From Polyangia bacterium (lineage in GTDB: Bacteria > Myxococcota_A > Polyangia > Fen-1088), in the NCBI GenBank assembly GCA_045802645.1, contig JBJMQQ010000121.1, positions 3,547 to 67,546 on the forward strand: a stretch of DNA of 64,000 nt, in the 5' to 3' direction. Of this stretch, positions 9,938 through 28,547 are shown piece after piece. The notes beneath the pieces were generated by a model that saw only the letters and a program-made list of their open reading frames with translations, searched no databases and had not been told where the DNA came from. A program made the translations under genes and the position numbers. Every line of letters starts with the position of its first letter. Position 1 is the stretch's first letter.

Positions 9938-9968
9938 ACACACAGGCGCGCAGCGCGAGATCCTGACG

Positions 9969-12043: not shown

Positions 12044-13054
12044 CTAGGCCGCGGCGAAGTAGCGGAGGGCGTTTTCACCCAGCAGGCGGTCGAGCGCGGG
12101 AGGGCGCCAGCCGCGGCGCCAGAGCAACTCGGTCAGGCGCGGCAGGTCGGCGGCGTCCCGGAGCCCGCGCGGTAACGGCATGAAGCCGTCGAAGTCGGAG
12201 CCCAGCGCGACGCACCCTTCGCCGCCGACGTGGGCGATGTGCTCGATGTGATTGGCGACCGCCTCCAGCGAGCAGAACGCGCCACCCAGATAGGACGCCA
12301 CGAAGATCACGCCCACGACGCCGCCCCTCTGGGCCAGCGCGCGGACCTGGTCGTCGTCCAGGTTGCGGGCATGCGGGTGGACGCCGGCCGCGCCAGAGTG
12401 CGAGGAGAACGGAGGCCGCTCGGCCGCCTCGACGATGTCCCAGAAGGTCTTGCGGCTGGCGTGCGACACGTCGAGACGGATGCCGGCCTGGTCGCACGCC
12501 CGGACCAGCGCCCGCCCGCGATCGGTCAGCCCGCCGTCGCGCGCCGCGGGCGTCCGGCACGACGCGCCGGCCGCGCTGTCCCGCTCCCAGAGCGGCCCCA
12601 GGAACATGACGCCCGCTTCGGCCAGGCGCGCGACACCGGCCTCGGGATCGTCGTCGATCGCGTAGCTCCCCTCGACGCCCAGGAACAGGGCCAGGCGGCC
12701 GGAGGCGCGCGCGGCGCGGATTCCGGCGGCGTCGCGAGCCAGCACCAGCGCATCGGGGTGGGCCGCCGCCAGCGCCCGCGCCTTGTCGAGCTGCCGCCAA
12801 AACCGGCGGTCGCGATCGACGCGAAACCCGGCGAACATGAGGCAGCCGAGGGCGTCGATGCCGCCGCGCCGGATGCGCGGCAGATCCAGGTCCAGGCGCA
12901 GCGGGTTGTAGTACGTGGCCGGCGCGTGCTCCTTGCCGATGTCGTAGCGGCTGTGGGTCAGCTTCGTCAGCAGGTCGTTGTGCAGGTCCAGCACCAGCGC
13001 GTCGGCATGCGCTGCCGCAGCGTCCGCGCTGACCTCCACCGGGTAACCGCGCAT
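12044..13054 (-). CDS. Membrane (renal-type) dipeptidase, peptidase family M19
   Basis: Family-typical motifs LDLHNDLL (HxD zinc ligands), GGIDALG, DVSHAS and ALGSDFDG. It starts 4 nt after the upstream kinase stop. Confidence 0.85.
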   Translation of the reverse strand: MRGYPVEVSADAAAAHADALVLDLHNDLLTKLTHSRYDIGKEHAPATYYNPLRLDLDLPRIRRGGIDALGCLMFAGFRVDRDRRFWRQLDKARALAAAHPDALVLARDAAGIRAARASGRLALFLGVEGSYAIDDDPEAGVARLAEAGVMFLGPLWERDSAAGASCRTPAARDGGLTDRGRALVRACDQAGIRLDVSHASRKTFWDIVEAAERPPFSSHSGAAGVHPHARNLDDDQVRALAQRGGVVGVIFVASYLGGAFCSLEAVANHIEHIAHVGGEGCVALGSDFDGFMPLPRGLRDAADLPRLTELLWRRGWRPPALDRLLGENALRYFAAA

Positions 13055-13058
13055 CGGC

Positions 13059-14507
13059 CTACGGCGCGGCGAACGGGTTCTTGAGCTCGGCGGGCGTTGC
13101 GGGATCGCCGGGCACGTCGATCTTGCGGTGCAGGGGGTCGACCTTGTCGGTCTCGCCGTGATGACGGCGGGCGCGGGCCGGCTGGTCCGCCGACGCCGCC
13201 TCGGGCGCGGGCACCTCCGCCGCGGGTGGATTCGCGGCGGGCGGCGCGACGACCGGCTTTTCGGCGGGCACTGGAACGAGCGACGCCTTTTCGACCGGCG
13301 GCGCCACGGCGGGTTTCTCGGCGACCCCGCGCGTGGGCGCCGGACCGCCGCGCAGCGCGAGCACGGCGACCGAGACGATCACCAGCGCCGCGACCGCGCC
13401 CAGGGCCAGCTTGGCGCGCGCACCCAGCCCGCCGCCCGGCGCTTCGGGGCGTGACGGCCGTTCGTCGTCGAACGTGCCGACGGGCGGCGTCGCCGCGATC
13501 GCCGTCAGCGAATCGCGCACGCCGGCGTTCGCCTCGGCGAGCGACGGGTACTTCAGCGTCGCGCCCGGCAGCGCCGGCGTCGGGATGCGCGTCACCGTCG
13601 AGGGCTCGAACGGCTGCCCGCCCGCCGCCCCGATGGCGCGATAGAACTCGTCCATGTCGGCCCACCGCTTGTCGCGATCCTTCTCGAGCGCGCGCAGGCA
13701 GACGGCCTCGACGTCCGCCGGGATCTGCAGGTCGGGACGCCGCTGGCGCAGCGGGATGACCGGCTCCAGCAGGTGCTTGGTCAGGATGCCCATGAAGCTG
13801 TCGGCGTGGAACGGAACCACGCCCGTCAGCATGTGGTACATGATGCAGCCCACCGCGTAGACGTCCACGCGGTGGTCGGGCGGTTGCCCCTGCGCCTGCT
13901 CGGGCGACATGTACTCGGGCGTTCCGAAGATCATCCCGGTCTGCGTCAGCCGCGGGCCGTCGTTGTTATCGGCGCTGACGACCTTCGCGATGCCGAAGTC
14001 CAGCACCTTCACGAAATCCGGGCGCCCCTCGCGCTGAACCAGGAAGATGTTCTCCGGCTTCATGTCGCGGTGGATGATCCCCTGCCCGTGCGCGGCCCGC
14101 AGCCCCTTGGCGATCTGCATGAGGATGCCGCGCGCGCGTCCCCAGGGCAGCGTGCGCTCGGTTCGCAAAGCGCGCCCCAGGTCCTGCCCCTCCAGGAACT
14201 CCATCGCGATGTAGACCAGACCCTGGCCGGTTTGCCCGAAGTCGGAGATGTCGATGACGTTCTCGTGGCCGATGCGCGAGGCGCTCTTCGCTTCTTGCAG
14301 GAAGCGCGCGACCAGCTCGGGACGGCGGCTCAGATCGGCGAAGAGGACCTTCAGCGCGACGCGCTTGCCGATGACCGCGTGCTCGGCCTGGTACACCGCG
14401 CCCATGCCCCCCTCCCCCACCTTCCGGACGATGCGGTAGCGCTCGGAGACGACCGTCCCGAGCAGCGGATCTTCCGCGGCCGGGGGGTTCGCGTCACCGA
14501 CAGGCAT
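13059..14507 (-). CDS. Membrane-anchored Hanks-type Ser/Thr protein kinase
   Basis: YRIVRKVGEGGMGAVY (Gly loop), VALKVL, HRDMKPENIFL, DFGIAK, SPEQ. TM helix LALGAVAALVIVSVAVLAL is followed by a Pro/Ala-rich tail. Confidence 0.9.
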   Translation of the reverse strand: MPVGDANPPAAEDPLLGTVVSERYRIVRKVGEGGMGAVYQAEHAVIGKRVALKVLFADLSRRPELVARFLQEAKSASRIGHENVIDISDFGQTGQGLVYIAMEFLEGQDLGRALRTERTLPWGRARGILMQIAKGLRAAHGQGIIHRDMKPENIFLVQREGRPDFVKVLDFGIAKVVSADNNDGPRLTQTGMIFGTPEYMSPEQAQGQPPDHRVDVYAVGCIMYHMLTGVVPFHADSFMGILTKHLLEPVIPLRQRRPDLQIPADVEAVCLRALEKDRDKRWADMDEFYRAIGAAGGQPFEPSTVTRIPTPALPGATLKYPSLAEANAGVRDSLTAIAATPPVGTFDDERPSRPEAPGGGLGARAKLALGAVAALVIVSVAVLALRGGPAPTRGVAEKPAVAPPVEKASLVPVPAEKPVVAPPAANPPAAEVPAPEAASADQPARARRHHGETDKVDPLHRKIDVPGDPATPAELKNPFAAP

Positions 14508-14600
14508 CGCGCCAATTTAACACGCGATCGCGTTGATGGAGCTGGGCTTCGCCCATCGGAGTCGTCGCGGGAGGTCCAAGGAACGCTCCCAGGGTTCTAA

Positions 14601-17600
14601 TTAGGCGGAGAGAGCTTGGGCGAGATCGTCGTACGTGTCGGACACCGCGAAGCGCAGCAGCGCCACGGCCTCCGGGTTCACGGCGACGGCCTCCAGCGTC
14701 AGACCTCCGTCGCGCGGCACCAGCGACGGCGAGAGCTCGAGGACCACGGACAGGGCGGCGGGCAGGTCGGAGCACGCCAGCAGACCGGCCACGTTCGCGC
14801 CGTCCCGGGTCGCGGCGAGCAGCGCGGGGAGATCGAAAGAGCCCGCGCTCTCCACCGCGTAGGGCATGGCCACCTGCTTGAGCTTTCGCGACAGCAGCCG
14901 ATCCAGCCGCGCCGCCTCGGCGTCAGCCAGCCCCTCGCGCACCGCCTCGTGCTGATAGTCGTGGACGAACTGCCGGATGATGCCGACCAGCAGCGCGCCG
15001 GCCTCCTCGGCCGGGACGGCCAGTAAGAGGTCCAGATGCGTCGCCGAAAGACGCAGCGTGCGCCCCGCCGCAAAGCGCAGCGCCGCCGGCCCCAGCGTCT
15101 CCAGCGCGTCGCCGACCACGATCGCCGGCGGATCGCCCGGCTCCGCGCGCAACAGGATGGGCCCCGACGCGGCGGCTGCCTGCCGGACGTAAAGGTCGAA
15201 CGAGCCGACGCCCAGCTCCGCGGCGACGACGTCGAACGCCGGTCGGGGCGGGGCGCCGCGCGGGCGCCGGTCGGCGCGCGTGAGCCCGTGGCGCGCGAGC
15301 CGCTGCGCGAGGTCCGCCCCCGTGGGCCGCAGCGAAGCACCCAGCAGCCGCAGGACGTGACGCACGCCCGACGGGAGCTCCGGCGGGAAGGCGCGCTCGT
15401 CGAGCTCCGGCTGGCGCAGCCCCGCCAGGCTGCGGGCGGGCGCCTCGGGGACGCGCTGCCCGGAAATCGCGGCCAGCAGCTGGGCGGCGGCGTGGGCGGC
15501 GTGCGGGCGCTCGCGCAGCACCAGCAGCGTCGCCAGCGCGCGAAGAGTTTCGGCGCGCAAACCGCCCGGGCGCACCAGGTCGTGGCGCAGCAGCCCCAGC
15601 GCCCGATCGAGCACCCCGCGGCGGCCGGCCGGATCGCGCGCCCGCTCGAGCTGCTGCACCAGCGCCGAGACGGCCTCGACGTCGCGCGGGGCCTCGTCGA
15701 ACGCGCGGCGCAGCTCGGCGCCCGCCCGCGACAGGTCACCCACCTGCGTCAGCACCTCGCCCAGGCGGACGCGCGTCCGGTGGCGCCGCGTCGGATCGGG
15801 CTCGCAGGCGACCAGGCGCTCCGTCACGGGCAGCGCCCGCTTGGTCTCACCCTCGCGCAGATAGAGGTCGGACAGCGCGCGTAGCGCCTCCAGGTTCTGC
15901 TCGTCGACGGCCAGCGCGCGTTCGTAGGCCGCCGCGGCGCGCTTGGGATCCGGCACCTGCGTCGAATAGATCTGACCGAGCCGCAAGAAGATCCGGCAGC
16001 GCGTGCCCGCGTCGCGCTCGACGACGGCGCGGCGCAGGAAGATCTCGCCGGCCTCGGCCCACTCTTGCCGGTCCCACAGCAGCTCGGACAGGGCCTCCAG
16101 CGCGCGCGGGTGTTCGGGCTGCTTGCGCAGCACCGCCTCCAGCTCGCGCCGCGCGCCATCCGGATCGCCCAGCGCCCGCGCCAGCAGCTCGGCGCGCGCG
16201 AGCCGCAGCGACGTGACCTCGAACGGGTTCTGCGCCACCTCGATGCGGGCGGCCAGCGCCGCCGCCAGCGCCCGCGCGTCCTCCTGCTCCGCCAGCAGCG
16301 AGCGCAGGCGCTCGAAGGCCGCCTCGTGGGTCGGGTCGGCGGCCAGCGCCGCGCGCAGGTCGGCCAGCGCGCGCGCCTGCGCGGGGGGCTGCGCCTCCAG
16401 CGCCAACGCGGCGGCCAGCAACAGCGCCCGCACGCGATGTTGCGCCAACACCAGGCACGAGGCTTCGACCTCGGCGGCGGCGGCGGTCGCCAGCACGTCG
16501 CCCGAACGCGCGGCCGTCGTCCGCAGCGCCCGCGCCGCCGGCAAGAACGTCGGGTCCGCCCGCAGCGCCGCCCGCCGGCTCTCGGCGGCAGCTTCGGGGT
16601 CGCCCAGCTCCTCCTCGACACGCGCCCGCGCCGTCCAGATCGACGCGGCCGCGCGGCGGTCCGACTCGGCCGCGCCCAGCGTGGTGATGGCCGCGGTCAG
16701 CGCCCAGCGCCGCAAGGCGGGGTCGGTCTGGGCGCTGCCGACGACCTGTCCCAGATCGCGCAGCGTGGCCCGCGGCGCGTTGGCTCCCGTCGTGGCCAGC
16801 CGGGCCGCAGCCGCCGCCAGCTGCTCCGCGCGTTCGGGCTGGTCGTGCGACTCGGCGAGCGCGACGGCCACGGCCAGCGTCGCGGGTCCGGCCGCGCCCT
16901 CATGCGGCGGCGACTCGGCGAGCCCGTCGATGAGCTCGGTCCAGTTGTTTGCCGCGGCCGTCGCCGCGAGGCGTCCCAGCGCAGCGGCGGCGCGGGCCGC
17001 GTCGGCGTCGGCGGGCCCCGCCAGCAGCTCGGGCGGCAGGGGCGGCGTTTTTCCGTTGGACCGCGCGTCGAACCGTCGCGCGTCCGGGGCAAAACGCCCG
17101 GAGGCCAGCGTCCGGAACAGCTCGCGCGCGCCGGCCGCGTCACCCCTGATGAGGCGGGCCTCGGCGACAGCCAGAACCTGCGCGTCATCGCGCTCCGGGT
17201 CGTGCCCGCCGAGCGGCAGCGACGCGGCGGCGGCTGGACCGCGTGGCTCGCCCAGCGCCACCGCGCAGCGCAACGCGATTGCGCGAGCCTCTCGTGTGAC
17301 GGGATTGCCGTCACCACCGGCCAGCAGCTCTTGCGCCGCGCGTAGCGCGGACGTGTGGTCGCCGCTCAGCGCTTGCAGGCTGACCGCCGCCAGCGAGGCC
17401 AGCCGCGCGAGCGCCGGAATGGCCCCGTCGTGCCCTGCGCGCGCCAGCGCGGCGGCGGCACCCGCCGTGTCGACCGACCGCTCGGACAAGTAGATGGGGA
17501 GCGCCAGCGGATGCGCCGGGGCGATCCGCAGCGCCTCCTGGAACGCGATCGCGCGCGCGCCGCTGTCCGACGCAGGCATCGACGACGCGTGCCGCAGCTC

Positions 17601-19466
17601 GACCCAGGCTCGCAGCGACGGATCGCGCGCGGCCGTCGTGGCGGCGTCCAGCGCGGCGCTCAACGCCTCGCGCTGGCCGGCCCGCTCGGCCAGTCGGCCG
17701 ACCGCTTCCGCGCCCAGCGCGCGCGCCGCCGGCGACAGCTTGCGGTCGCCGGGAAGCTCCAGCGCTTCCAGTGCGCGCGCCGGATCCGCGGGCGCCAGCT
17801 TGGCGGCGGCGCACGCGCGCAACGGCGCCTCCAGCGCGCCGCCGCGCCAGATCTCGGCGCCGTACGCCAGCACCGCCGACGCATCGGCGCGCCGGCCGGC
17901 GCGTGCGTCTTCACCCGCGACCTCCCAGAAGACGGCGGACGTCGGCGCCGCCTCCAGCGCCGTTTGCAGCGCGGCGCGCGCGGTCAGCTCGCTGCCGGCC
18001 TGCCCGCGCGCCTCGGCCAGCAACAACGCCGCAGCCGCGCGCCGGCCGTCGTCACCCCGGAGCCAGGTTTCCAGCGCCAGCGCGCGCGCGGCGGGATCGC
18101 GTCCGTCGGCGGCCATCGCTTCGGCGATCAGGGCCAGCGGCGTCGCGTCCGGCGCGGCCTCGACCGCGGCGGACAGCAGCGCGGAGGCGGCGCCGTCCTG
18201 CCCCTGGCGCCGCAACGACTGCGCCTCGACCCAGGTCAGCGTCGCCGCCGCGGCCGGTGAGCCGGCGCCGGCCCGCGCCCGTTCCAGCGCCGCCGGGTCC
18301 AGCGGCACCCCCAGCGCGGCATCCAGCTCGATCACGTCGCGAGCCGCCGCGAGCGAAGCCGGCTGCTGGTCCAGGAAGGCCCGGGCGGCGGCGAAATCTC
18401 CGCGCGCGCGCGCCAGGCTGGCACCCCAGCGACGGACGGCCTCGGTGACGGCCGAAAACACGGGCAACGCGGGGAGCACCTCGGCCAGCTTCTTTTCGGC
18501 GTCGCGCCCCGTCGCGCGCGCCGCGCCGCCCAGGGCAGCCAGCGGAATCCCCGGCTCGGCCGGCGCCAGGCGGCGCGCCGCTGCCAGGTACGCCGCCGCC
18601 GCGTTCGCGTCGCGCGCCGTCAGCGCGACGCGTGCCGCCTGTTCGATGAACGCCGCGCCAATCGCGACAGGCGTCCCCGCGCCGGCGCTGCCGGCGCTTG
18701 GCTCGCGGCCGGGGCTGAGCGCACGGCCTGCAGCCCCCAGCGCGCCGGCCGCGGCCCCCGCGCCCTCGCGCAGCGCCGCCTCCGCGAGAGCGATGGCGCG
18801 TGCGGGTCCAGGTGGAATCGCGTCGACCGCAGCGGCGGGCAAGCTCCCGCCGCGGGCCAGCGTCCATTCGGCCGACAGCCCGCCATAGAACGCGCGCTCC
18901 TCCGGGTTGCCGGCCGCCGACGCGAGGCGCGCCCAGAGCGCGTGGGCTTCGTCGAGCTCGCCCAGGCTCTCGGCCAGCCGCGCGCGGGCCCGCAGCGCCT
19001 CGGGCGCATGGGGCGACCGGGCCAGCGCCTCGTCGTAGCCGCGCGCCGCTCCCGCCGCGTCGCCCGCTGCTTCCGTCGCGCGGCCGGCCGCCACCAGCAA
19101 GGCCGCCGCCTCGTCAGGTGTCGCCGCCAGCGCGCTCTCGTCCCGATAAAGATGCGCATCCGCCCGCCACTCCTCGGGCGCGGGTGGACCGGCCAGCGCC
19201 TGCTCCGGCACGCTGACCAGCGCCTCCATCCCCGCCAGCCAGATGTCGGCCTCCATCTCGGGCAGCGTCGGCGCGAACAGCACCACGGGCTCGCTCGACG
19301 CGCTCGCCTGCGGATCCAGATCCGCCAGCGCCGGCACGTTGGGATCCGTGGGCGGCGCGTCGTCGGAGAACTCCTCCTCGAAGAACTCCTCCTCGAAATC
19401 GTCCTCGATCTCGATCGTGGTCACTTCACCGGGGTCGCCCGGGCGGCGGGGTCCGCGTTCGCTCAC
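14601..19466 (-). CDS. Giant (1,621 aa) TPR-like repeat protein, acidic N-terminus, conserved non-TPR C-terminal domain (paralogue B)
   Basis: Single uninterrupted ORF whose start overlaps the upstream stop by 4 nt. TPR units include AAAAYERALAVDEQNLEALRALSDLYLREG. N-terminus EVTTIEIEDDFEEEFFEEEFSDD. C-terminal motifs DRLLSRKLKQ and ALLRFAVSDTY. Confidence 0.85.
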   Translation of the reverse strand: MSERGPRRPGDPGEVTTIEIEDDFEEEFFEEEFSDDAPPTDPNVPALADLDPQASASSEPVVLFAPTLPEMEADIWLAGMEALVSVPEQALAGPPAPEEWRADAHLYRDESALAATPDEAAALLVAAGRATEAAGDAAGAARGYDEALARSPHAPEALRARARLAESLGELDEAHALWARLASAAGNPEERAFYGGLSAEWTLARGGSLPAAAVDAIPPGPARAIALAEAALREGAGAAAGALGAAGRALSPGREPSAGSAGAGTPVAIGAAFIEQAARVALTARDANAAAAYLAAARRLAPAEPGIPLAALGGAARATGRDAEKKLAEVLPALPVFSAVTEAVRRWGASLARARGDFAAARAFLDQQPASLAAARDVIELDAALGVPLDPAALERARAGAGSPAAAATLTWVEAQSLRRQGQDGAASALLSAAVEAAPDATPLALIAEAMAADGRDPAARALALETWLRGDDGRRAAAALLLAEARGQAGSELTARAALQTALEAAPTSAVFWEVAGEDARAGRRADASAVLAYGAEIWRGGALEAPLRACAAAKLAPADPARALEALELPGDRKLSPAARALGAEAVGRLAERAGQREALSAALDAATTAARDPSLRAWVELRHASSMPASDSGARAIAFQEALRIAPAHPLALPIYLSERSVDTAGAAAALARAGHDGAIPALARLASLAAVSLQALSGDHTSALRAAQELLAGGDGNPVTREARAIALRCAVALGEPRGPAAAASLPLGGHDPERDDAQVLAVAEARLIRGDAAGARELFRTLASGRFAPDARRFDARSNGKTPPLPPELLAGPADADAARAAAALGRLAATAAANNWTELIDGLAESPPHEGAAGPATLAVAVALAESHDQPERAEQLAAAAARLATTGANAPRATLRDLGQVVGSAQTDPALRRWALTAAITTLGAAESDRRAAASIWTARARVEEELGDPEAAAESRRAALRADPTFLPAARALRTTAARSGDVLATAAAAEVEASCLVLAQHRVRALLLAAALALEAQPPAQARALADLRAALAADPTHEAAFERLRSLLAEQEDARALAAALAARIEVAQNPFEVTSLRLARAELLARALGDPDGARRELEAVLRKQPEHPRALEALSELLWDRQEWAEAGEIFLRRAVVERDAGTRCRIFLRLGQIYSTQVPDPKRAAAAYERALAVDEQNLEALRALSDLYLREGETKRALPVTERLVACEPDPTRRHRTRVRLGEVLTQVGDLSRAGAELRRAFDEAPRDVEAVSALVQQLERARDPAGRRGVLDRALGLLRHDLVRPGGLRAETLRALATLLVLRERPHAAHAAAQLLAAISGQRVPEAPARSLAGLRQPELDERAFPPELPSGVRHVLRLLGASLRPTGADLAQRLARHGLTRADRRPRGAPPRPAFDVVAAELGVGSFDLYVRQAAAASGPILLRAEPGDPPAIVVGDALETLGPAALRFAAGRTLRLSATHLDLLLAVPAEEAGALLVGIIRQFVHDYQHEAVREGLADAEAARLDRLLSRKLKQVAMPYAVESAGSFDLPALLAATRDGANVAGLLACSDLPAALSVVLELSPSLVPRDGGLTLEAVAVNPEAVALLRFAVSDTYDDLAQALSA

Positions 19467-22400
19467 GTCCCCTCCCCTCGGCCCGCGGCGCGGCGGACGG
19501 TCACGTAGGTTTCGCTCAGCGCAAACGCCAGCAGCTCACGGGCTGCCGCGTCGCCGGCGACGGCGGCCACACCACCAGCCCGCGCGATCGCCGCGCGCGC
19601 CGGATCGTCGATGACCAGCAGCGCAAACCGATCGGCGACCCGAAGGACCGCGGCGCGCCAGGCGTCCAGATCCAGCGGTTCGAACCCGAACCGCGAGACC
19701 TGCAGCGCCAGCGCCTTGCGATCCTTTCGGCTCAAGAGCCGACCCACATCGCGCAGCATCGCCTCGCCGGGCTTCGACAAACGCTTGGGGACCGTTCCAC
19801 CCGCCAGCACGGCTGCGCACGAAAACAGCGGGGCCAGATCGGCCGCGGGTTTCCGATCGAGGGCCCCCGCCCGCAACGCGAGCAGCGCCACCGCGCGGCT
19901 GGCCCAGAACGCCAGGTCTTCGGGGGCCGCCTTCACGTCGACCAGCAGCGCCGGCGGCGTGCGGTCGACCGGCGCGCACACAGGACCGGCCGACGCGCGG
20001 GCGAGCAGGTCCAGGCGCGGGATCTCCAGAGCCGCGGCGACCGGCCGCAACCACGCCAGCCGCGCGTCGGCGGCGGCCGGCAGCGGCTCTCCGGCGGGCG
20101 GCGGAAACAGCGCCTCCGCGACCTCCGCCAGCTGCGGCCAGATTTCGGCCGCGAAGCCACCGGCGTCCGGATCGGCCAGCGCTGCGAGCAGCGCCCGCGC
20201 CTGCTGCGGGGCGGCCGGGGGCGCCGATTCACCTCGCGGCGCAGCGACGCCCGTGGCCAGCGCGTGCACGCTGGCGACCGCTGCGTCGCCGCCGGCCTGT
20301 CCACCCCGGCGGCGCGCCTCGAGCAGCCACTCGCCGAGGCGCGCGAGCCGGCTGGCGTCCAGCGGGTTCGCCGCCAGAGCCTGTCGCAGGTCGGCGATCT
20401 CGCGCTCGATGATCTGCAGGGCCCCCCGCGCGTCCTGTCCCGCGTCGTAAAGGCCGGTCAGCAGCGCCACACCCGGTCCGAGCGGCGCCAGGTCGGCTGC
20501 CTGCCGGAAAGCAGCCGCAGACCCGGCCGCATCGGCCGCGCGGTCCCGCAGGATCTCCCCGATGCGGATCCAGCGCGACGCCTGCCCGGACGGGTCGGGC
20601 ACGCGCGCGGCGGCCGCCCGCAGCGCCTCGACGGCGCCCGCGACGTCTCCGACGGCGGACAGCACCTCCGCCAGGTGGTCCAGCGGGCGGGGATCGGCGG
20701 CCGAAACGTCGGCGGCGCGGCGCAGCGTGGTCACCGCACGCGCGACGTCGCCGCGGGCCGCGTAGCTGGACGCCAGCGCCAGGCGGGCGCCGCGGATCGC
20801 CTCTGACGTCTCGCCCGGATCCACCCCCAGCATCCCGCGGGACGCGGCGGCGTCCAACGCCAGCAGGTAGCGCTCGAGCCACTCCGACGCCGCGACCGCC
20901 TCACCGGCGGCCGTGGTGGCCTGCGCCAGCTCCCGAAGCGCGTCCAGGCTTTCTGGCTCGAACTTCAAGATCTGCTTGAAGTCTTCGAGAGCCCCCGCCA
21001 GCCCCCCTTCCACCGTGAGGCGGTGGCGGCCGCGCTCGAACAGCAGGGCCAGGCGCTCGCCCCGCGACAGCCGCGCGGCGGCCAGGCGGTACGACAGCAA
21101 TCCGTCCAGGATCTCCGCGCGCCCGGGCGCCTGCAGGTCGGAGCGCAGCAGCCGGTGGGCCTGCTCGTACGCGGGTGTGCTATCCGGATCCAGCTCGACG
21201 GCGCGCGACAGCGCCGCGATCGCGTCGTCGGCGCGGCCTGCCTGCTCGTACGCCGCGCCCGCGTCCACCAGCAGGCCGGCGGCCCGGTGTGGATCCCGCA
21301 CCAGCGCTCCCAAACGGGCCAGCGCCCGCGCCTCGCCCAGGGTGTCGCCCCCCGCCCGCGCGACCCGGCGCACGCCGCTCCACGCCTCGAGCCGCTGAGG
21401 ATCGGCGCCAATCACGCTTCCGTAGGCAGCCAGCGCCCCGGCCAGATCACCGGCCCGTTCGGCGTCCATCGCCGCCTCCAGGTGCAGGCCGATCGCCAGC
21501 GGCCCGCCGATCCGGCGGGCGCGCGCGCGACGGGGATCCGGGCGTGTCGCGGGCCAGGCGCTGCCCGCGGCGACCGGCAGGTCGGCGACGGCGGCCGCCA
21601 GACCGGGGGCGCGCGTCCGCTGCCACAGCGCCACCGCGACACGCTCGGCGATTTCGGGCCCTGCCAACCGGGCCCGCGCCACTGCGCGCGCGTAAAGCGC
21701 CAGCACCTCCGGCGTCGCTGATCCTGACGCCTCCTCCAGCGCCGTCGCCATTGCCGACAGGGCCTCGGCCGCGGCCCCGGCGTCCTGCCCACGCACGCCG
21801 GCCAGGAATTGCCAGAGGACGGCGTCCGCCCGCGCCGACGGCGTGTCGCCATCCGTGCTGGCGGGCGAAGGAACGGCGACGCCGGCCGCCAAGCTGCTGA
21901 GCGCCGCTTCGCGCGCGGCGGCCGCGGCGATAGCCGGCTCCTCGGCGCAGGCCTGCGCCAGCGCCGAGAGCGCCTGGCCGAGCGCACCGCGCTCCGCCGC
22001 CCGGTCGCCGGCAGCCAGGCGGAACAACGCCAGCGCGGCGGCGGGCGCCGTCTCGCCCAGCGGAGACTCGACGATGGCGCGCCGGAACGCGTCCGCGGCG
22101 CCCGCCGGATCGCCGGCCCGGGACAACGCCTCGCCGTAAGCCAGCAGCACGTTGGCGGGCTCCGCGATCGTGCCGTCGCCGAGGCGCGCCTCCTCGGAAA
22201 GGACCGCGATCTCCAGGATCGCGTCGCCCGAGCGCCGCGCCAGCTGGTCACTCCAGGCGCGCGCGACGGGGTCCCCCTCCGCGCGCAGCGGCGTCAGCGC
22301 GGCCACCGCTTCCGGGTACGCGCCCGCCTCGGCGTGGTGATGCGCCAGCCGAAGCCGCAGCGCGCGCACGCGTTCAGGCGACGCGTCGGTCTGCGCGGCG

Positions 22401-24511
22401 AGCTCGGCGGCAACCACCGCGGCACGCGCCTGAGGCGTCGCAGCGGCCCGCTCGAGCGCGGAGCCCGCCAACCCGGCTGCGTCCGCCGGGATCAGCTCGG
22501 TCAAAAGCGCGCTCCCCCGCGCGACCGCGGACGGGTCGGGGCTGGCGGCCAGCGTGCGCCCCGCAGCCAACCGGAGCGCAATCGCCGCGTCGGGGTCCTT
22601 GGCCAGGTCCGCCATCGCCAGCAGGTTGCCGGCGCGATCGACGGTGCTGAGGCGCGCGTCTGCCGCCGCTTCCAGATCGAAGTCGTGCAGGCGAGCGCGC
22701 GCGGCCAGGCTTCGCGGCCGCAACACGACCAGGCGCCGCTGGTGCGGGATGGCGCGGCCAGGCTGGCCCATCTGATCGGCGTAAAGGGCCACCAGCGTCT
22801 CCCGCGCCCAGCGCTCCAGCTCGCGGTCGGCGTCCGTCGCGCCTTGCGTGTCGGCTTGTGTTTGCGACTGGGCCAGCACCCCCAGCGTGTGCTCGAGGAT
22901 CCCTGCGGCTTCTTCGATTCGCCCGGCCGCGATGGAGAGCGCGGCCAATGCCTGCGCGGCGGGACGAGCGTGTCGCAACGTGGGGTCCAGCGCCATCGCG
23001 CGGCGATACAGCTCGGCGGCCGCGTCGGCCTGCCCCAGCGCGGCAGCCCGCACGGCGCCGGCGGCGATCAGCGCGTGCACGCGCGCCGGTCCATCGTCGG
23101 CGGCCACGGCCTCCGCTTCGCCGGCCAGCGCCTCCGCCAGCGCAACCGGGTCGTGGTTGCGCACGGCGATCGCGAGCTGGGCGGCCCGCAGATCGACGCG
23201 CGATGGGCGGCAGGCCAGCACGCGTGGCTCTTCCAGCAGCGCGGCTGCCTCGGTCGCCTCGGCCGGGCCGGAGATCTCGGCGAACAGCAGCGCGACGTCG
23301 ACAGCATCGTCATCGCGCGCCGCAGCCGCGATGAAGTCCCGCACGATCTCGGCGGCCGCCCCGCCCCGATCGAGCGCCAGCGACAGCTCGACTCGTTCGG
23401 CGGCGACCGACGGGTGGGCCGGGTCGAGGCGCGCCGCTTCGTCGAGCGCCTCGAGGGCCGCTTGCGGCCGCGACTGCGTCCGCCGCAGCAGGTACGCGCG
23501 CTCGCGCCACAGCGCGACCGCCAGACCACGGTCCGCGGCGGCGACTCTTTCGCCCAGGACCGCCAGTGCCCGATCGGCGACGTCCGGTGGCGCCGCGTCG
23601 CGGGTCAACCCGTCCAGCTCCGCCAGCAACGTGGCGAGCGGGCTGCCCTCGTCGCCGCGCGCGAGCTCCCCTTCGAGCGCGGCCAGCGCCCGTGCGGCGC
23701 CGTCGGCCCGGGCGGCCTGCCAGGCCCGCGCCTCTTCGACGACCAGCGCGCCGCGCCGCGGCGCCGCGTCGGCGATGCGCGACAGCCCGCCCAGCGCCTC
23801 GGCGCGTAGCCCCGCGTCGTTGCGCCTGACGCCCGCCAGCCACAGCGCGAGCAGCGCGCCGGGGTGGTCCGCGACGACCGCCAGCGCCTCACGGTAGGCG
23901 GCCAGCGCCTCGTCGGCCCGGTCTAACCGGTCTTCCAGTAACCGCCCGCGTGCGACCAGCAGATCGGCGCGGCCAGTCGGGTCGCTGCCGGTCGGGCGCG
24001 CGCGCGCCGCCTCGGCGTGGACCTCGGCCAGCTCCGCCCAGCGCCGGGCCCGACCCAAGAGGCGCCGCAGCGTCCAGAACGCCACCACCGAGGCGGGGTC
24101 GCCCGCGAAAGCCGCCCGCGCGGAGGTCAGGGCCAGATCATCGCCGGCGGGGTTGTTCTCCTGACGGCCCAGCCGCTCTTCGAGCTCGGCCACCTCGACC
24201 AGCAGCCCGGCCCGGCGTGCGCCGTCGCCCGCGGCCGCTTCCGCGCGAAACAGCTCGATCTCGGCCCGCGGATCCTCCTCGGCCGCCTCGACGATCGGCG
24301 GCCGCAGCTCGACGACGTCGACGATGTCCAGCAGCTCGGAGGCGCCGGCGTCGCCGATCAGCCCGGGCTGTGTGCGGTCCGTGTCCTCACGGCGGACTGT
24401 CTGGGGAACAGCGCCGCGCAGATCGGTATCGGCAGGAGCCGGGGGCGGCCCTTCCACGTCGAATTCGATCTCGACCACCTCTTCGTCATCGCCGTCCGGT
24501 GCTGGTGGCAT
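19463..24511 (-). CDS. Giant (1,682 aa) TPR-like repeat protein, acidic N-terminus, conserved non-TPR C-terminal domain (paralogue A)
   Basis: Single uninterrupted ORF. TPR units include AIAALSRAVELDPDSTPAYEQAHRLL. N-terminus DDEEVVEIEFDVEGPP. C-terminal motifs GRLLSRKDRK and ELLAFALSETY. A strong promoter match lies just upstream. Confidence 0.85.
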   Translation of the reverse strand: MPPAPDGDDEEVVEIEFDVEGPPPAPADTDLRGAVPQTVRREDTDRTQPGLIGDAGASELLDIVDVVELRPPIVEAAEEDPRAEIELFRAEAAAGDGARRAGLLVEVAELEERLGRQENNPAGDDLALTSARAAFAGDPASVVAFWTLRRLLGRARRWAELAEVHAEAARARPTGSDPTGRADLLVARGRLLEDRLDRADEALAAYREALAVVADHPGALLALWLAGVRRNDAGLRAEALGGLSRIADAAPRRGALVVEEARAWQAARADGAARALAALEGELARGDEGSPLATLLAELDGLTRDAAPPDVADRALAVLGERVAAADRGLAVALWRERAYLLRRTQSRPQAALEALDEAARLDPAHPSVAAERVELSLALDRGGAAAEIVRDFIAAAARDDDAVDVALLFAEISGPAEATEAAALLEEPRVLACRPSRVDLRAAQLAIAVRNHDPVALAEALAGEAEAVAADDGPARVHALIAAGAVRAAALGQADAAAELYRRAMALDPTLRHARPAAQALAALSIAAGRIEEAAGILEHTLGVLAQSQTQADTQGATDADRELERWARETLVALYADQMGQPGRAIPHQRRLVVLRPRSLAARARLHDFDLEAAADARLSTVDRAGNLLAMADLAKDPDAAIALRLAAGRTLAASPDPSAVARGSALLTELIPADAAGLAGSALERAAATPQARAAVVAAELAAQTDASPERVRALRLRLAHHHAEAGAYPEAVAALTPLRAEGDPVARAWSDQLARRSGDAILEIAVLSEEARLGDGTIAEPANVLLAYGEALSRAGDPAGAADAFRRAIVESPLGETAPAAALALFRLAAGDRAAERGALGQALSALAQACAEEPAIAAAAAREAALSSLAAGVAVPSPASTDGDTPSARADAVLWQFLAGVRGQDAGAAAEALSAMATALEEASGSATPEVLALYARAVARARLAGPEIAERVAVALWQRTRAPGLAAAVADLPVAAGSAWPATRPDPRRARARRIGGPLAIGLHLEAAMDAERAGDLAGALAAYGSVIGADPQRLEAWSGVRRVARAGGDTLGEARALARLGALVRDPHRAAGLLVDAGAAYEQAGRADDAIAALSRAVELDPDSTPAYEQAHRLLRSDLQAPGRAEILDGLLSYRLAAARLSRGERLALLFERGRHRLTVEGGLAGALEDFKQILKFEPESLDALRELAQATTAAGEAVAASEWLERYLLALDAAASRGMLGVDPGETSEAIRGARLALASSYAARGDVARAVTTLRRAADVSAADPRPLDHLAEVLSAVGDVAGAVEALRAAAARVPDPSGQASRWIRIGEILRDRAADAAGSAAAFRQAADLAPLGPGVALLTGLYDAGQDARGALQIIEREIADLRQALAANPLDASRLARLGEWLLEARRRGGQAGGDAAVASVHALATGVAAPRGESAPPAAPQQARALLAALADPDAGGFAAEIWPQLAEVAEALFPPPAGEPLPAAADARLAWLRPVAAALEIPRLDLLARASAGPVCAPVDRTPPALLVDVKAAPEDLAFWASRAVALLALRAGALDRKPAADLAPLFSCAAVLAGGTVPKRLSKPGEAMLRDVGRLLSRKDRKALALQVSRFGFEPLDLDAWRAAVLRVADRFALLVIDDPARAAIARAGGVAAVAGDAAARELLAFALSETYVTVRRAAGRGEGT

Positions 24512-24535
24512 GCCGCGGGTATTCCGGCTGAGCGC

Positions 24536-24565
24536 ATTATCACGGCCGCCGGATCAGCATGTCAA
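24536..24565 (-). promoter_or_regulatory. Near-consensus sigma-70-type promoter for the giant TPR operon
   Basis: On the minus strand: TTGACA (24565-24560), 18 nt, GATAAT (24541-24536), ending 24 nt before ATG 24511. It sits in the 78-nt divergent intergenic region. Confidence 0.5.
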
Positions 24566-24589
24566 TGGACAGCTCCGAATGCCGTGGGC

Positions 24590-25633
24590 ATGATAGGTCG
24601 CGCCTCCGGCGGCCGGCGATCGCGGCGGCTGGGAGCCAGAACCGAGAGGCCCGACCTGCCGAACCTGCTCGTCCCCATCGACCTGCGCGACGGCGTGCCG
24701 ACGCCGCCGTCACTGTTTGCGCTCGCGGAGACGCGGCGGGTGGCGCGCGTGGCGGGCGCCACCGTCTACGCGATCGTGCTGGCGGAACGTGACCTGTCAG
24801 CCGAAACGATCGCGCAGCTCGGGCGGGCGGGCGCGGACAAGGTGCTGCTGTGTGAGGGCTCCTCGCTGGGGGCGCCTCCTCTGGAGGCGACCCACGGGAC
24901 GGCGTTGCTGGCCGCCGTCGAGCGGGTCTCGCCGCTGCTGGTCCTGTTCCCGGCGGGCGGGGCCGGCGTTTCCCTGGGCCCCAGTCTGGCCGCCCGACTG
25001 GGTGCGGCGTTCGCTGGCCCCGCGGATCTGGAGGTCAGCGAGGTCGAAGACGCCCTCCCCGACGGCATTGGACGGGTTTTCGTGCGTTTCTGGAGCGCCG
25101 GACGCACCGCGTACCGGCGACTCGACCCCGTCGACGTCGAGCGTCCGATCGTCGCCATCTTGCCGGCTGGCGGCGCGGCGGCGGCCATCGGGAGCCCGTC
25201 GATCGACCACGACGTCATCACCTGTACGCCACCGCTGGCGCCGGGCGTCGACACGTTGGCGTCGGACGCCGACGACCGGGCAGCGATCGCGCTGGCTCGC
25301 GTTCTGGTCGTCGTCGATCCCGCGTTCGGCGGCGGCGCGGTCGAGACTTTGCGCGCGGCGGCTCCGGCCGGTGTGGCCGTGGCCGACGGGGTGGCCGACG
25401 CCTCGTCCGTCGCCGCCGCCACGCCGGAGATGATGATCGTGGTCGGCGGGTCGCCGCCGCCCATCGGGACACCCCGGGCGCGGGTCGCGCTGGTCGCGAC
25501 CGACGCCGGCGCAGAGGAGAGCGGCCGGGGGGTCGACGTCGTGTGGCGCGTGCCGCCAGAAATGAGCGCCGACGTGATGATCCAGCAGCTCGCCGACGCT
25601 CTGCCGGGCCTGGCCGTGGAGACGGCGTCATGA
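24590..25633 (+). CDS. Electron-transfer-flavoprotein alpha-subunit-like protein with degenerate FAD-binding region
   Basis: In-frame ATG 24590 within ORF 24017-25633. The N-terminal domain pattern (LLVPIDLRDG...SLFALAETRRVA...VYAIVL...GADKVLL) is ETF-alpha-like. The C-terminal segment MMIVVGGSPPPIGTP replaces the canonical ...YIAxGISGxxQH... signature. Confidence 0.65.
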   Translation: MIGRASGGRRSRRLGARTERPDLPNLLVPIDLRDGVPTPPSLFALAETRRVARVAGATVYAIVLAERDLSAETIAQLGRAGADKVLLCEGSSLGAPPLEATHGTALLAAVERVSPLLVLFPAGGAGVSLGPSLAARLGAAFAGPADLEVSEVEDALPDGIGRVFVRFWSAGRTAYRRLDPVDVERPIVAILPAGGAAAAIGSPSIDHDVITCTPPLAPGVDTLASDADDRAAIALARVLVVVDPAFGGGAVETLRAAAPAGVAVADGVADASSVAAATPEMMIVVGGSPPPIGTPRARVALVATDAGAEESGRGVDVVWRVPPEMSADVMIQQLADALPGLAVETAS

Positions 25634-26307
25634 ACGTGCTCGTCTGCTTGCGTACGACCGCGCGCACGACCTCAGAGTTGCTCGACGCCGCGGACGCGCG
25701 GGCGCTGGCCCACGCGCTGCCGCTGCGGGGCGCCGGCCACACCTTGACCGCGCTCTACGTGGCCAGCGCCGCCGAGGCGGCCCCCGTCGCCGCGCGCCTG
25801 TCGCCGCACGTCGACCGTGCCGTGCGCGTCGTCAGCGACGAGGTTGCGGCGGCCGACTTTCACACGTGCGGCCAGATGCTGGCGATGGCGATCCGGCGCC
25901 TTGGCGCCGACGTCGTGCTGGCGCCCATTCAGGGCGAAAACGAAGCCGCCGGCGGAACACCCGCCGCGATCGCGCGTCACCTGGGCGCGCGCTACGTTCC
26001 GTTCGTCGAGGAGATCGCAGGCCTGGACGACGCCAACGCGGAGGTGCTCGTCCGCGGCGGCGGTCGCAAGCGCCGGCTGCGTGTGGCGTTTCCGGCCGTG
26101 ATCGGCACCGCCCCTGGCGCCGCGACGCTCCCGCCTGCGTCCGCCGGCGCCGACCCCACGCCCGTCGAGACGATCGCGCTCAACGATCCGGAGGCGACGG
26201 TCGTCCGGCGTCGCACCGAGCTCCTGGGCCGCCCCGAAAACGCCTCACGCGGAACGCAAACGGTGACTTCGGCCGCCGCACTGATCGCCGCGCTCAAGCG
26301 CGCCTAG
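25630..26307 (+). CDS. Electron-transfer-flavoprotein beta-subunit-like protein
   Basis: ATGA overlap with the previous stop. MNVLVCLR..., DRAVRVVSDE..., ADFHTCGQMLAMAIRRLGADVVLAPIQGENEAAGGTPAAIARHLGARYVPFVEEI and RLRVAFPAVIGT follow the ETF-beta fold pattern. Confidence 0.65.
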   Translation: MNVLVCLRTTARTTSELLDAADARALAHALPLRGAGHTLTALYVASAAEAAPVAARLSPHVDRAVRVVSDEVAAADFHTCGQMLAMAIRRLGADVVLAPIQGENEAAGGTPAAIARHLGARYVPFVEEIAGLDDANAEVLVRGGGRKRRLRVAFPAVIGTAPGAATLPPASAGADPTPVETIALNDPEATVVRRRTELLGRPENASRGTQTVTSAAALIAALKRA

Positions 26308-26315
26308 ACGCTCTT

Positions 26316-26416
26316 CCCCGTCCTCGTCCTCGTCCTCGTCCTCGTCGCCGTCCTCGATACTCCGACGACGACCTGCGCCAGAGCCGGAGACGAGGACGAG
26401 GACGAGGACGAGGAAG
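26316..26416. repeat. Hexanucleotide-arm inverted repeat (long perfect hairpin), copy 1
   Basis: 26321-26346 (TCCTCG x4 + TC) is the exact reverse complement of 26389-26414 (GACGAG x4 + GA), with a 42-nt loop. It fills the gap between convergent stops (TAG 26305-26307 and the cca stop 26419-26421). The 41-nt block 26316-26356 is identical to 61979-62019. Confidence 0.9.
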
Positions 26417-26418
26417 AT

Positions 26419-27828
26419 TTACTTGGGCGCTTCCGCTCGAACTTCGGGCAGCAGCGCTTCCAGCTTGTCCCGGTCGTTCAGCGACGGGTCGTCCAGCACG
26501 CGCTCGAGGAGGCGCTCGAGAATGACGCCGATTTCTCGACCAGGCGGCACACCGAGAACCCGCATCACGTCGCGGCCGTCGATGGCCAGGTCGGTCACGC
26601 GGAGTGCGGCGTCGGCGTCCGCGACCGCGCCGATGCGCCGGCGCAGCTCGCCGATCTCTACCTCCGGATCCTCGCCGAAGCCGCGCCCGCGCACGTCGCC
26701 CTCCCGCAGCGCGAACAGATCGGCCAGCCCTTCGTTGCCGCCCACGCGCCGAACGAAGCGGCGGATCGTGCCGTCGCTCCAGTCGGGCGTGTAGAAGAAC
26801 ATGTGGTTCTTGACCATCGCCACGACACGATCGCGGTCGGCGTTGGCCAGCTTCAGCCGCCGGCAGATCTCCTCGGCCATGTCGGCGCCGACGTACTCGT
26901 GCTTGAAGAAGCTGAATTCACCGGGCGCTTCCTCGCGCGGCTGGCGCGCGCGCGGTTTGCCAACGTCGTGCAGCAGCGCCCCCAGCCGGGCCACCACATC
27001 GCCGCGGGTCACGTCCACCACCGACAGCGTGTGTCCGAAGACGTCGTGCTTGTGAAACCGGTTTTGCGTGCACCCCACCCCTTCCAGCAGCTCCGGGATG
27101 ACCACGCCCAGGAGACCCGTCTCGCGCATCAGCTCCAACCCGCGTGACGGCCGCGGCGCCGCCAGCATCTTGAACAGCTCGTCGCGAATCCGCTCGGCCG
27201 AGACCTTGCGGACGACGTCCAGCGTCTGCGGGATCGCCGCCTTGGTGGGCGCGTCGATGTCGAACTCCAGCTGGGCGGCTTGCCGCACGGCGCGCATGGG
27301 CCGCAGGCCGTCCTCGCGAAAACGCATCACGGGATCGCCCACCGCGCGAATCAAGCGCCGCCCCAGATCGCCGCGACCGTCGAACGGGTCCGTGAGCCGT
27401 CCGTCGACCGGGTCGAACCCGATGGCGTTCATCGTGAAGTCGCGCCGGCTCAGATCCTCTTCCAGCGTTTGCACGTAGCTGACGGACGACGGCCGCCGCC
27501 CGTCCAGGTAGTCGCCCTCGCCGCGAAAGGTCGTCACCTCGACGGGGCGGCGCGGGCTGGCGTCGGTCAGGACCGTGACGGTCCCGTGCTTGAGGCCGGT
27601 CGGTATCGCGAACGTGTGCCCGAACAGCGCCAGCACCGCCTCCGGCACGGCGTCCGTCGCGACGTCGAAGTCCGCGGGCGGCCGACCGAGCAGCATGTCG
27701 CGCACGCCGCCGCCGACCAGGTGCGCCTGGTGGCCGGCGCCGCGCAGCCGCTGGCAAAGCCCCAGGACGTCGCCCGGGATCTGCGCCCGCAGCGCCGCGA
27801 CGGTCTGCTCGTTGGCTGGCTCGGTCAT
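26419..27828 (-). CDS. cca: CCA-adding tRNA nucleotidyltransferase (class II, HD domain)
   Basis: In-frame ATG 27828 (MTEPANEQ...) has an ATGA overlap with the rnc stop. Head-domain motif GGGVRDMLLGRPPADFDVAT and HD motif LLHDVGKP. The upstream part of ORF 26419-28443 is Arg-rich junk that overlaps rnc. Confidence 0.8.
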   Translation of the reverse strand: MTEPANEQTVAALRAQIPGDVLGLCQRLRGAGHQAHLVGGGVRDMLLGRPPADFDVATDAVPEAVLALFGHTFAIPTGLKHGTVTVLTDASPRRPVEVTTFRGEGDYLDGRRPSSVSYVQTLEEDLSRRDFTMNAIGFDPVDGRLTDPFDGRGDLGRRLIRAVGDPVMRFREDGLRPMRAVRQAAQLEFDIDAPTKAAIPQTLDVVRKVSAERIRDELFKMLAAPRPSRGLELMRETGLLGVVIPELLEGVGCTQNRFHKHDVFGHTLSVVDVTRGDVVARLGALLHDVGKPRARQPREEAPGEFSFFKHEYVGADMAEEICRRLKLANADRDRVVAMVKNHMFFYTPDWSDGTIRRFVRRVGGNEGLADLFALREGDVRGRGFGEDPEVEIGELRRRIGAVADADAALRVTDLAIDGRDVMRVLGVPPGREIGVILERLLERVLDDPSLNDRDKLEALLPEVRAEAPK

Positions 27829-28547
27829 TCGCCCTCCGCCTCGCCGCGATCGATCGCGTCCAGCGCCGCCGCCGCCGCGCTCTGCTCGGCCTCTTTCTTC
27901 GAGCGACCGGTGGCGCGTCCCAGGGCGCGGCCAGCAATGGTGAGCGCGACCTCGAACCGCTTGTCGTGATCGGGTCCGCTCGCGCCCACGACCTCGTAGA
28001 CGGGCGCCACCTGCCACAGCGCCTGCGCCCGCTCTTGCAGCCGCGACTTGAAGTCCAGGCGCGCGTGTCGCGGTAGGTCCCGGAGCTCGGGCTGGAACAG
28101 GCGCGCCGCGATCCCCCGGGCTGCCTCGAGGCCGGCGTCGAGATAGACGGCGCCGACCAGCGCCTCCAGTGCGTTGGCCAGGATCGACGGCCGCGTGCGC
28201 CCGCCTGTTTTTTCTTCGCCACGCCCCAGCAGCACGAACCGCCCCAGGTCCAGCAGCGCCGCGGCTCGCGCCAGGCCGCCCTCGCTGACCAGCGCGGCCC
28301 GCGCCCGACTGAGCTCGCCTTCGGGCGCGTCGGGGAGCTGCGCCATCAGCAGATCGCTGGTCACCAGCGCGAGCACCGCGTCGCCCAGGAACTCGAGACG
28401 CTCGTTGTCGGCGCGCCCGGCGAGCGCGGCCTCGTTGAGCCACGACGTGTGCGTCAGCGCCGTGTCCAGCAAGCTGCGGTCGCGGAAACGGTGCCCCAGC
28501 CGCTGCTCCAGCTCGGCGGCCTCGGCGGCTTGTTCTGCTCTCTCCAT
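27825..28547 (-). CDS. rnc: Ribonuclease III
   Basis: In-frame ATG 28547 (MERAEQ...). RNase III signature NERLEFLGDAVL and a C-terminal dsRBD (GPDHDKRFEV...GRSKKEAEQSAA). 240 aa. Confidence 0.9.
   Translation of the reverse strand: MERAEQAAEAAELEQRLGHRFRDRSLLDTALTHTSWLNEAALAGRADNERLEFLGDAVLALVTSDLLMAQLPDAPEGELSRARAALVSEGGLARAAALLDLGRFVLLGRGEEKTGGRTRPSILANALEALVGAVYLDAGLEAARGIAARLFQPELRDLPRHARLDFKSRLQERAQALWQVAPVYEVVGASGPDHDKRFEVALTIAGRALGRATGRSKKEAEQSAAAAALDAIDRGEAEGE

Follow-up and report, generated by a model that had tools for sequence, protein, structure and literature searches.

Six neighbouring genes in a metagenome-assembled genome (MAG) of Polyangia (Myxococcota) encode two giant proteins, A and B, a membrane-anchored Hanks-type Ser/Thr kinase, an M19 dipeptidase and, on the opposite strand, two proteins that resemble the alpha and beta subunits of electron transfer flavoproteins (ETF; genes ETFa and ETFb). 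They lie in a stretch of 64,000 nucleotides with a G+C content of ~72%, here called the window. An earlier interpretation based on the DNA alone (the sequence-only reading) had treated the six genes as one system. Comparison with relatives contradicts this: none of the components (kinase, M19, giants, ETF-like pair) is present at the locus in every lineage, and the kinase has a promoter element of its own. With a probability of roughly 60%, we regard the locus instead as a clade-specific syntenic block of three separately promoted units that was accreted stepwise. The only firm pairs within it are A with B and ETFa with ETFb, and both are robust.

In the organisation that we propose, a promoter termed P_A would drive giant A and giant B as the first unit, the GTGA overlap between the two genes permitting translational coupling. 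Both products are predicted to be cytoplasmic and to consist of an acidic N-terminus, a tetratricopeptide repeat (TPR)/alpha-solenoid body and an unannotated alpha/beta C-terminal domain of 250 residues. In the second unit, a promoter termed P_ETF would drive a leader of ~55 nt followed by the ETF-alpha-like and ETF-beta-like genes, with translation probably starting at a CTG after a GAGG. In the third, an extended -10-like element would drive a leaderless or near-leaderless kinase mRNA, which in this lineage would continue 4 nt on into M19.

The map of open reading frames (ORFs) and a check of the sequence recovered the six genes, the gaps of 93 nt (giant B to kinase) and 4 nt (kinase to M19), the promoter of the giants and a palindrome upstream of the kinase, all as the sequence-only reading had placed them. 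The minus-strand order giant A, giant B, 93-nt gap, kinase, 4-nt gap, M19 likewise agrees with the ORF map. Giant B begins with a GTG that overlaps the TGA stop of giant A by 4 nt (GTGA), and the ETF-like genes form a coupled pair on the plus strand, with a 4-nt overlap (ATGA) read in the sequence. The ETF-alpha-like protein is 100% identical to NCBI protein P0121 (locus tag ACJ8F1_10870, 'Polyangia bacterium' MAG).

Gene order in relatives

Related loci were collected from gene-context look-ups, from a scan of GTDB species genomes (26 loci) and from a metagenome scan with the ETFa family, which added 79 loci. The gene content of the GTDB loci was determined by tblastn with 16 window proteins. 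A first contig scan with a single C-terminal sequence of A gave no matches, and an alignment of 12 sequences was too diverse for a pattern search; an alignment of five sequences succeeded. Homologues of giant A are full length (1,640–1,760 residues), reach down to ~30% identity and, where their source is named, come almost all from Polyangia MAGs.

The complete order is IscS-MnmA / RNase III / CCA enzyme / ETFb-ETFa <-> A-B-kinase-M19 / radical SAM / DEAD helicase, where the double arrow separates divergent genes. Gene-context look-ups showed it in relatives with A proteins 55%, 49% and 42% identical to that of the window, and one and the same order was found among the 26 GTDB loci wherever the contig was long enough. 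The block ETFb-ETFa <-> A-B-kinase-M19 is present in ~20 GTDB species loci and ~45 metagenome contigs; A, together with B where the contig reaches it, is divergent from ETFa in ~45 of the 79 metagenome loci. Conservation of the neighbourhood, which the sequence-only reading had set as a test, was thus observed within the clade, and random juxtaposition is not borne out there.

The six genes do not co-occur wherever the core occurs. Four loci with A proteins 33–40% identical (L025, L026, L028, L031) lack the kinase, and M19 follows within ~50–60 nt of B. At 29% identity of A, locus L112 reads RNase III-CCA-ETFb-ETFa <-> A-B-kinase and then directly DEAD helicase, with neither M19 nor the radical SAM gene, and its far flank on the ETF side differs. 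In an outgroup clade (clade II: L098, L100, L101, L103 and probably L110; ETFa 36–39% identical, G+C 63%), viewed in 17 kb of each contig, the kinase faces the ETF-like pair across ~46 nt, giants and M19 are missing, and the DEAD helicase and CCA/RNase III flanks are retained. The clade II kinase is orthologous to that of the window (486 residues, C-terminus GELKPFPKL, 67% identity over the kinase domain). Finally, three distant Myxococcota, among them Sorangium So ce1024, have the A-B pair intact and coupled, and the other four genes are not nearby.

The housekeeping flanks, namely the genes for the CCA-adding enzyme, RNase III and the DEAD helicase, are conserved as well as the six genes themselves. 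Inherited synteny therefore accounts for most of the pattern.

Two further observations concern the outer parts of the block. In the window, ~6 kb (6026–11870) separate M19 from the radical SAM gene, two genes that are adjacent or near-adjacent in many relatives. This segment holds a di-haem cytochrome c peroxidase, a 462-residue protein without a Pfam match, a protein with a CarboxypepD_reg domain and a second kinase-domain protein; the junction of M19 and radical SAM is the block boundary most often rearranged. On the other side, the longest ORF for the CCA/poly(A) polymerase (26419–28443, minus strand) has 674 codons, ~200 more than the genes called in relatives (454–478 residues), and its first 240 codons cover, in a different frame, the site at which relatives encode RNase III. 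It is probably an artefact of long ORFs in high-GC DNA that conceals a separate RNase III gene.

Promoters and start codons

A promoter scan of 14.5 kb returned two promoter-like sites against 0.1 expected, both of them in the intergenic region between A and ETFa. The near-consensus promoter that the sequence-only reading had assigned to the giants, P_A, is present on the minus strand (TTGACA 24565–24560, an 18-nt spacer, GATAAT 24541–24536) and conserved in relatives. Transcription from it is predicted to start near 24529, which would give a 5' untranslated region of ~18 nt. P_ETF lies on the plus strand (TGGACA 24566–24571, 17 nt, CATGAT 24589–24594), and the -35 boxes of the two promoters abut (TGTCAA/TGGACA, 24560–24571). 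Their predicted transcription starts are ~72 bp apart.

An alignment of relatives with A proteins only 42–55% identical showed invariant hexamers at a fixed spacing of 17–18 nt, with variable bases in the spacers. The full four-hexamer signature recurs in 51 of 112 loci, again with variable spacer sequence. We read this as a strong phylogenetic footprint of two back-to-back sigma70-type promoters. As in the general class of such divergent promoters, two near-consensus -35/-10 pairs stand on opposite strands; here, by comparison, no base separates the -35 hexamers, which together make an imperfect inverted repeat. The sequence-only reading had supposed that the region left almost no room for a promoter of the ETF-like genes and that the divergent units share regulation. 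The first supposition is refuted by the conserved TGGACA-17/18-CATGAT, which faces the ETF genes and has the annotated ATG inside its -10 box. The second stands in part: the intergenic region is a conserved, shared control region, but each side has its own conserved promoter. The sequence TGGACA...TGC could also be taken for a sigma54 promoter, but this was ruled out because GG and GC are 12 nt apart in the aligned sequences, where 10 nt are required. An Rfam search of the intergenic regions found no family match.

The footprint also bears on the start of the ETF-alpha-like protein. Its annotated ATG (24590) falls within the CATGAT box. Among 45 non-redundant loci, an ATG at this position is in frame and open relative to the conserved protein core in nine, and it lies anywhere between 22 and 96 nt from the core; the first 20–40 residues of ETFa are not conserved as protein. 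In all 45 loci, GAGGC stands ~4–8 nt before the codon of the first conserved residue, and that codon is CTG in all 45; it is ATG in L022. We infer CTG 24656 as the site of translation initiation, preceded by a leader of ~55 nt. With this start, the coding regions of A and ETFa would be ~144 nt apart. The separation of 78 nt given in the sequence-only reading depends on the annotated ATG, which is part of a conserved -10 element and not a conserved start codon.

Upstream of the kinase, GTG(A/T)TAAATT occurs 6–9 nt before the ATG in 14 of 14 kinase-bearing relatives examined (6 nt in the window). Variants are TGGTAAAGT in L098 and L100 of clade II and TGATACAGT in L112, and the element is missing before M19 in the kinase-less loci. 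Its sequence fits an extended -10 (TGnTAAATT), and it would constitute a separate kinase promoter. Its position 6 nt from the ATG points to a leaderless or near-leaderless kinase mRNA, and the presence of an own conserved element makes it probable that the kinase is not co-transcribed with the giants.

The palindrome ACGCGATCGCGT, to which the sequence-only reading had drawn attention, does exist, at 14 nt rather than 15 nt from the kinase ATG, and relatives do not conserve it. It sits in an insert of ~60 nt common only to the window and its closest relative, L007. Copies with at most one mismatch are weakly above chance (5 versus 1.44 expected; 3 of 100 shuffles reach 5). A role as an operator was ruled out by the lack of conservation, and the palindrome is probably incidental. 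A structured RNA in the 93-nt gap was also ruled out, the fold not being significant (z -1.95).

One system or separate units

The simplest history for the locus would begin with an older backbone of DEAD helicase / kinase <-> ETFa-ETFb / CCA enzyme / RNase III. The A-B pair would have been inserted into this backbone, M19 and the radical SAM gene would have followed later, and the kinase would have been lost secondarily in one branch.

Several points weigh against such a stepwise block of independent units. A single promoter could serve the four minus-strand genes: the kinase is preceded by the conserved extended -10-like element, but a terminator-like site was looked for in the gap between B and the kinase and none was found, so that read-through from B is possible. 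The giants could sit elsewhere in the clade II genomes, of which only the 17 kb per contig were seen. Within clade I, the junction between ETFa and A is unbroken throughout the loci, and the core ETFb-ETFa <-> A-B-kinase is kept in L112 though both outer flanks differ; this persistence exceeds what neutral synteny strictly requires. The abutting -35 boxes in 51 loci could, moreover, mean that the giants and the ETF-like pair are truly co-regulated.

The rival reading, along the lines of the sequence-only one, is a single signalling or processing module co-regulated from the shared control region, with the giants as a scaffold for membrane kinase, dipeptidase and ETF-like pair. Such a module would explain the adjacency of six genes in many species, the retention of ETF <-> A-B-kinase at 29% identity of A with differing outer flanks, the conserved back-to-back promoters and the confirmed 4-nt spacing of kinase and M19. 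We nevertheless consider it unlikely. Every partner is dispensable: the kinase in the four loci with M19 directly after B, M19 in L112, and giants with M19 in the four certain clade II loci. In distant Myxococcota, A-B stands without the ETF-like pair, the kinase or M19 beside it. A conserved promoter element of its own precedes the kinase, the housekeeping neighbours are equally conserved, and a literature search found no described system with this combination of genes.

It is also doubtful that kinase and ETF-like heterodimer form the functional pair, as they might if a nucleotide- or redox-sensing pseudo-ETF were read out or controlled by the membrane kinase, with giants and M19 as later insertions. 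The orthologous kinase and the ETF-like pair are indeed divergent neighbours in clade II, and they stay in one block in clade I and in L112. However, DEAD helicase and CCA-enzyme genes flank them in both clades, so backbone synteny suffices to explain the arrangement, and the kinase-less loci have kept the ETF-like pair. We know of no biochemical link between the kinase and the ETF-like pair. Weaker functional links, either of the kinase with this pair or of the pair with the giants through the abutting promoters, appear improbable as well. More speculatively, and with little expectation that it is correct, one may picture the FAD-less ETF-like heterodimer (FAD, flavin adenine dinucleotide), the membrane Hanks kinase and the giant TPR pair as a lineage-specific signalling platform of uncultured Polyangia, in which the pseudo-ETF would sense nucleotide or redox state and the abutting promoters would set a fixed ratio or a competition with the scaffolds.

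We therefore retain the three separately promoted units as the preferred reading, and their features are collected in Table 1.

Table 1. Features of the six-gene locus, in window coordinates (MFE, minimum free energy)
Feature	Coordinates	Strand	Basis
M19 dipeptidase, 336 aa	12044..13054	-	PF01244 E 2e-78
Hanks-type Ser/Thr kinase, 482 aa	13059..14507	-	Pkinase PF00069 E 2.9e-48
Extended -10-like element TGTTAAATT (TGnTAAATT)	14514..14522	-	Conserved before kinase ATG in relatives
12-bp palindrome ACGCGATCGCGT	14522..14533	.	Sequence check; without conservation
Giant B, 1621 aa	14601..19466	-	ORF; Pfam TPR; C-terminal domain homologous to that of A
Giant A, 1682 aa	19463..24511	-	ORF; Pfam TPR; C-terminal alpha/beta domain
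Putative promoter P_A of giants, TTGACA-18-GATAAT	24536..24565	-	Promoter scan; conserved hexamers
Putative promoter P_ETF of ETF-like pair, TGGACA-17-CATGAT	24566..24594	+	Promoter scan; conserved signature
Shine-Dalgarno-like GAGAGG (24644–24649) and CTG (24656–24658)	24644..24658	+	Probable ETF-alpha-like start
ETF-alpha-like gene, 347 aa annotated, ~325 aa from CTG	24590..25633	+	PF01012 only, E 3.4e-12
ETF-beta-like gene, 225 aa	25630..26307	+	PF01012 E 1.2e-11
Long hexamer-repeat hairpin	26312..26417	.	MFE -73.1 kcal/mol, z -7.3

The encoded proteins

The sequence-only reading had described the giants as a scaffold pair. Pfam TPR models score above their gathering thresholds in both proteins (TPR_1 at 39.9 bits, TPR_8, TPR_11 and TPR_2 in A; TPR_16 and TPR_19 in B), but they cover only part of each, and the rest is helical sequence rich in Ala, Leu and Arg. 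Hydrophobic segments, scored here and below as 19-mers by mean Kyte-Doolittle hydropathy, were not found in A or B. A full-length BLASTP comparison of A with B gave only a weak match in the TPRs (E 0.023). When the last 420 residues of A and ten homologues were aligned with B, a common non-TPR C-terminal domain of ~250 residues emerged (19466–20221 in A; ~14604–15410, 250–270 residues, in B), marked by the motifs RFxxGRALxLL, LSRKxRKAL, WRxxxxRxAxRxGLLxxGD and LLxFALSDxY. Invariant in it are Arg276 and Arg332 (419-residue numbering; also listed as Arg109 and Arg165).

AlphaFold2 predicts the domain with confidence (predicted local distance difference test score 92.6; predicted template-modelling score 0.90) as a small three-strand sheet packed on about a dozen helices. 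In a model of the last 419 residues of A, helical hairpins match TPR structures, and this TPR part dominates the Foldseek matches. The domain itself matched no Pfam family at E <= 10; its profile found no meaningful match among PDB sequences, with one spurious hit (6jdd, E 0.02), and Foldseek with the trimmed 252-residue domain gave no significant match (best E 1.8, template-modelling score <= 0.25). That it is a degenerate zincin-type (pseudo)peptidase, making the giants peptide- or protein-handling platforms tied to M19, is highly improbable: the predicted fold does have a three-strand sheet followed by a long helix, and the top Foldseek matches are of zinc metallopeptidase type (IrrE/PprI, M61, MATCAP, M1, HExxH domain), but all have E >1 and a probability <= 0.10, neither HExxH nor a conserved His or Glu was found in the domain, its invariant residues are Arg, and neither L112 nor the distant Myxococcota have M19 next to A-B.

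When 1.84 billion cluster representatives were searched with a profile of the domain, 3,786 proteins reached E <= 1e-3, of which 2,098 also reached E <= 1e-10, each protein standing for a cluster at 50% identity. Among the best 150 matches listed, the long proteins (~1,450–2,100 residues) carry the domain at the extreme C-terminus, and many shorter ones look like fragments; one further homology search with the domain profile gave fragments only. One protein of 3,850 residues, P0348, contains the domain twice (residues 1642–1909 and 3558–3842) and is therefore a natural A-B fusion. The stop/start overlap of A and B was also found in L005 and L006. The common C-terminal domain, the pairing and the fusion together indicate that A and B are ancient paralogues that move as a pair and are in some cases fused. 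Their pairing is the only strongly supported functional coupling that involves the giants, and most likely they would act jointly as a hetero-oligomeric scaffold. In two long-read MAGs, giant B is called as two genes (L001 15079–20023, 902 + 709 residues; L002 14929–19811, 1217 + 410 residues); these splits could be frameshifts, assembly errors or real. L005 (Sorangium sp. So ce1024) has a third giant TPR protein, of 1,495 residues and with a Zn-ribbon at its N-terminus, whose gene (3705–8192) lies immediately upstream of A-B and is divergent from it.

Both giants begin with a strongly acidic peptide, DGDDEEVVEIEFDVE in A (24452–24511; the N-terminus of A carries EEVVEIEFDVE) and EVTTIEIEDDFEEEFFEEEF in B (19367–19466), and the first 40 residues of the two proteins have net charges of -9 and -12. 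Homologues down to ~48% identity share the A motif EE(L/V)VEI(D/E). Set against the basic (Arg, Lys) invariant residues of the C-terminal domain, the acidic N-termini suggest a possible head-to-tail contact. Compared by general description with bacterial TPR scaffolds and TPR-kinase couplings such as PknG, the locus likewise has a TPR/alpha-solenoid beside a Hanks kinase gene. Unlike in that type, the TPRs are carried by two separate proteins of 1,600–1,700 residues, unfused to the kinase and both ending in the unannotated 250-residue domain, and adjacency of the kinase to the giants is dispensable.

The ETF-like proteins each contain a PF01012 domain, at residues 33–141 of the alpha-like protein. 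This protein matches domain I of 5ol2_A (E 3e-5 with the single sequence, 5.6e-8 with a 20-sequence profile), and the beta-like protein weakly matches 1o94_C (E 1.4e-5). PF00766, the FAD-binding C-terminal domain, gave no match in the alpha-like protein at E <= 0.01; in the profile search against PDB, the region equivalent to the FAD domain scored -3.2 bits, and only domain I of solved ETF alpha chains was matched. NCBIfam scores are far below the equivalog cut-offs (36.9 versus 600 bits for the alpha-like and 19.2 versus 445 for the beta-like protein). The 120 homologues listed of 272 found for the alpha-like protein are all at least 52% identical, those with a named source being from Polyangia MAGs; metagenome contigs add a branch at 36–39% identity.

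Like canonical EtfA/EtfB (PDB 5ol2, 4kpu, 1o94), the pair comprises two translationally coupled genes, each with PF01012, and its best matches of solved structure are the large and small ETF subunits. It differs in that the alpha-like subunit has no PF00766 detectable even with the 20-sequence profile, and no partner dehydrogenase or ETF-QO gene is adjacent in the window locus. We infer a degenerate ETF without the FAD of the alpha subunit. An alpha subunit that lacks a recognisable FAD domain makes a nucleotide-binding or structural heterodimer more likely than an electron carrier.

Between the convergent ETFb and CCA-enzyme genes lies the hairpin of Table 1, in which a (GTCCTC)n arm pairs with a (GAGGAC)n arm over >22 bp. 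None of 200 shuffles was as stable, and a comparison with Rfam gave only sub-threshold matches to miRNA precursors. The gene ends overlap or lie close together at this position in L001 and L007, which gives the hairpin the look of a lineage-specific insert or a terminator; it is probably one of these, the terminator being bidirectional.

For the kinase, the membrane anchor, single transmembrane helix and Pro-rich tail of the sequence-only reading are upheld by the Pkinase match, the hydropathy profile and the composition of the tail. The kinase domain spans residues 24–282, and VALK, HRD (HRDMKPEN) and DFG can be read in the translation. The predicted transmembrane segment is a 19-mer at residues 367–385 (mean hydropathy 2.85), the strongest of ten overlapping windows >1.8, all in one region. 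It is followed by a Pro/Ala-rich tail of 96 residues (22% Pro), predicted to be extracytoplasmic. This tail is otherwise low in complexity and ends in ELKNPF (13059–13100); ELK(N)PF is kept across clades (L098, L112 and others) and may serve in binding or sorting as a short linear motif.

The M19 protein matches PF01244 over its full length (profile positions 3–317 of 319), and no strong hydrophobic segment was found in it. The metal-ligand motifs HND, GVEG, DVSH, SSHS and GSDFDG are present. In alignments to Sco3058 (3id7, E 1e-35) and human renal dipeptidase (DPEP1, 1itq), the ligand motifs HND, xEG, SH, SHS and DxDG match. The protein thus shares with these renal-type dipeptidases the full-length domain and the conserved ligands of the binuclear metal site. 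It differs from them in having no NCBIfam equivalog match and in being encoded 4 nt downstream of a Ser/Thr kinase, an arrangement of this clade only.

The idea of a six-gene pathway fails on comparison with relatives, and this saves effort on a speculative system. What the locus offers instead is a large uncharacterised family of paired, sometimes fused, TPR proteins of 1,600–2,000 residues that end in a confidently folded 250-residue domain. To our knowledge, hardly any regulatory signals have been described for uncultured soil Polyangia, the host group of these features. The footprint between A and ETFa moves the start of the ETF-alpha-like gene away from its annotated position, to what is probably a conserved CUG initiation codon. 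The divergent ETF-like heterodimer without a recognisable FAD domain and the conserved, probably leaderless, kinase promoter complete the list, and all four items can be tested.

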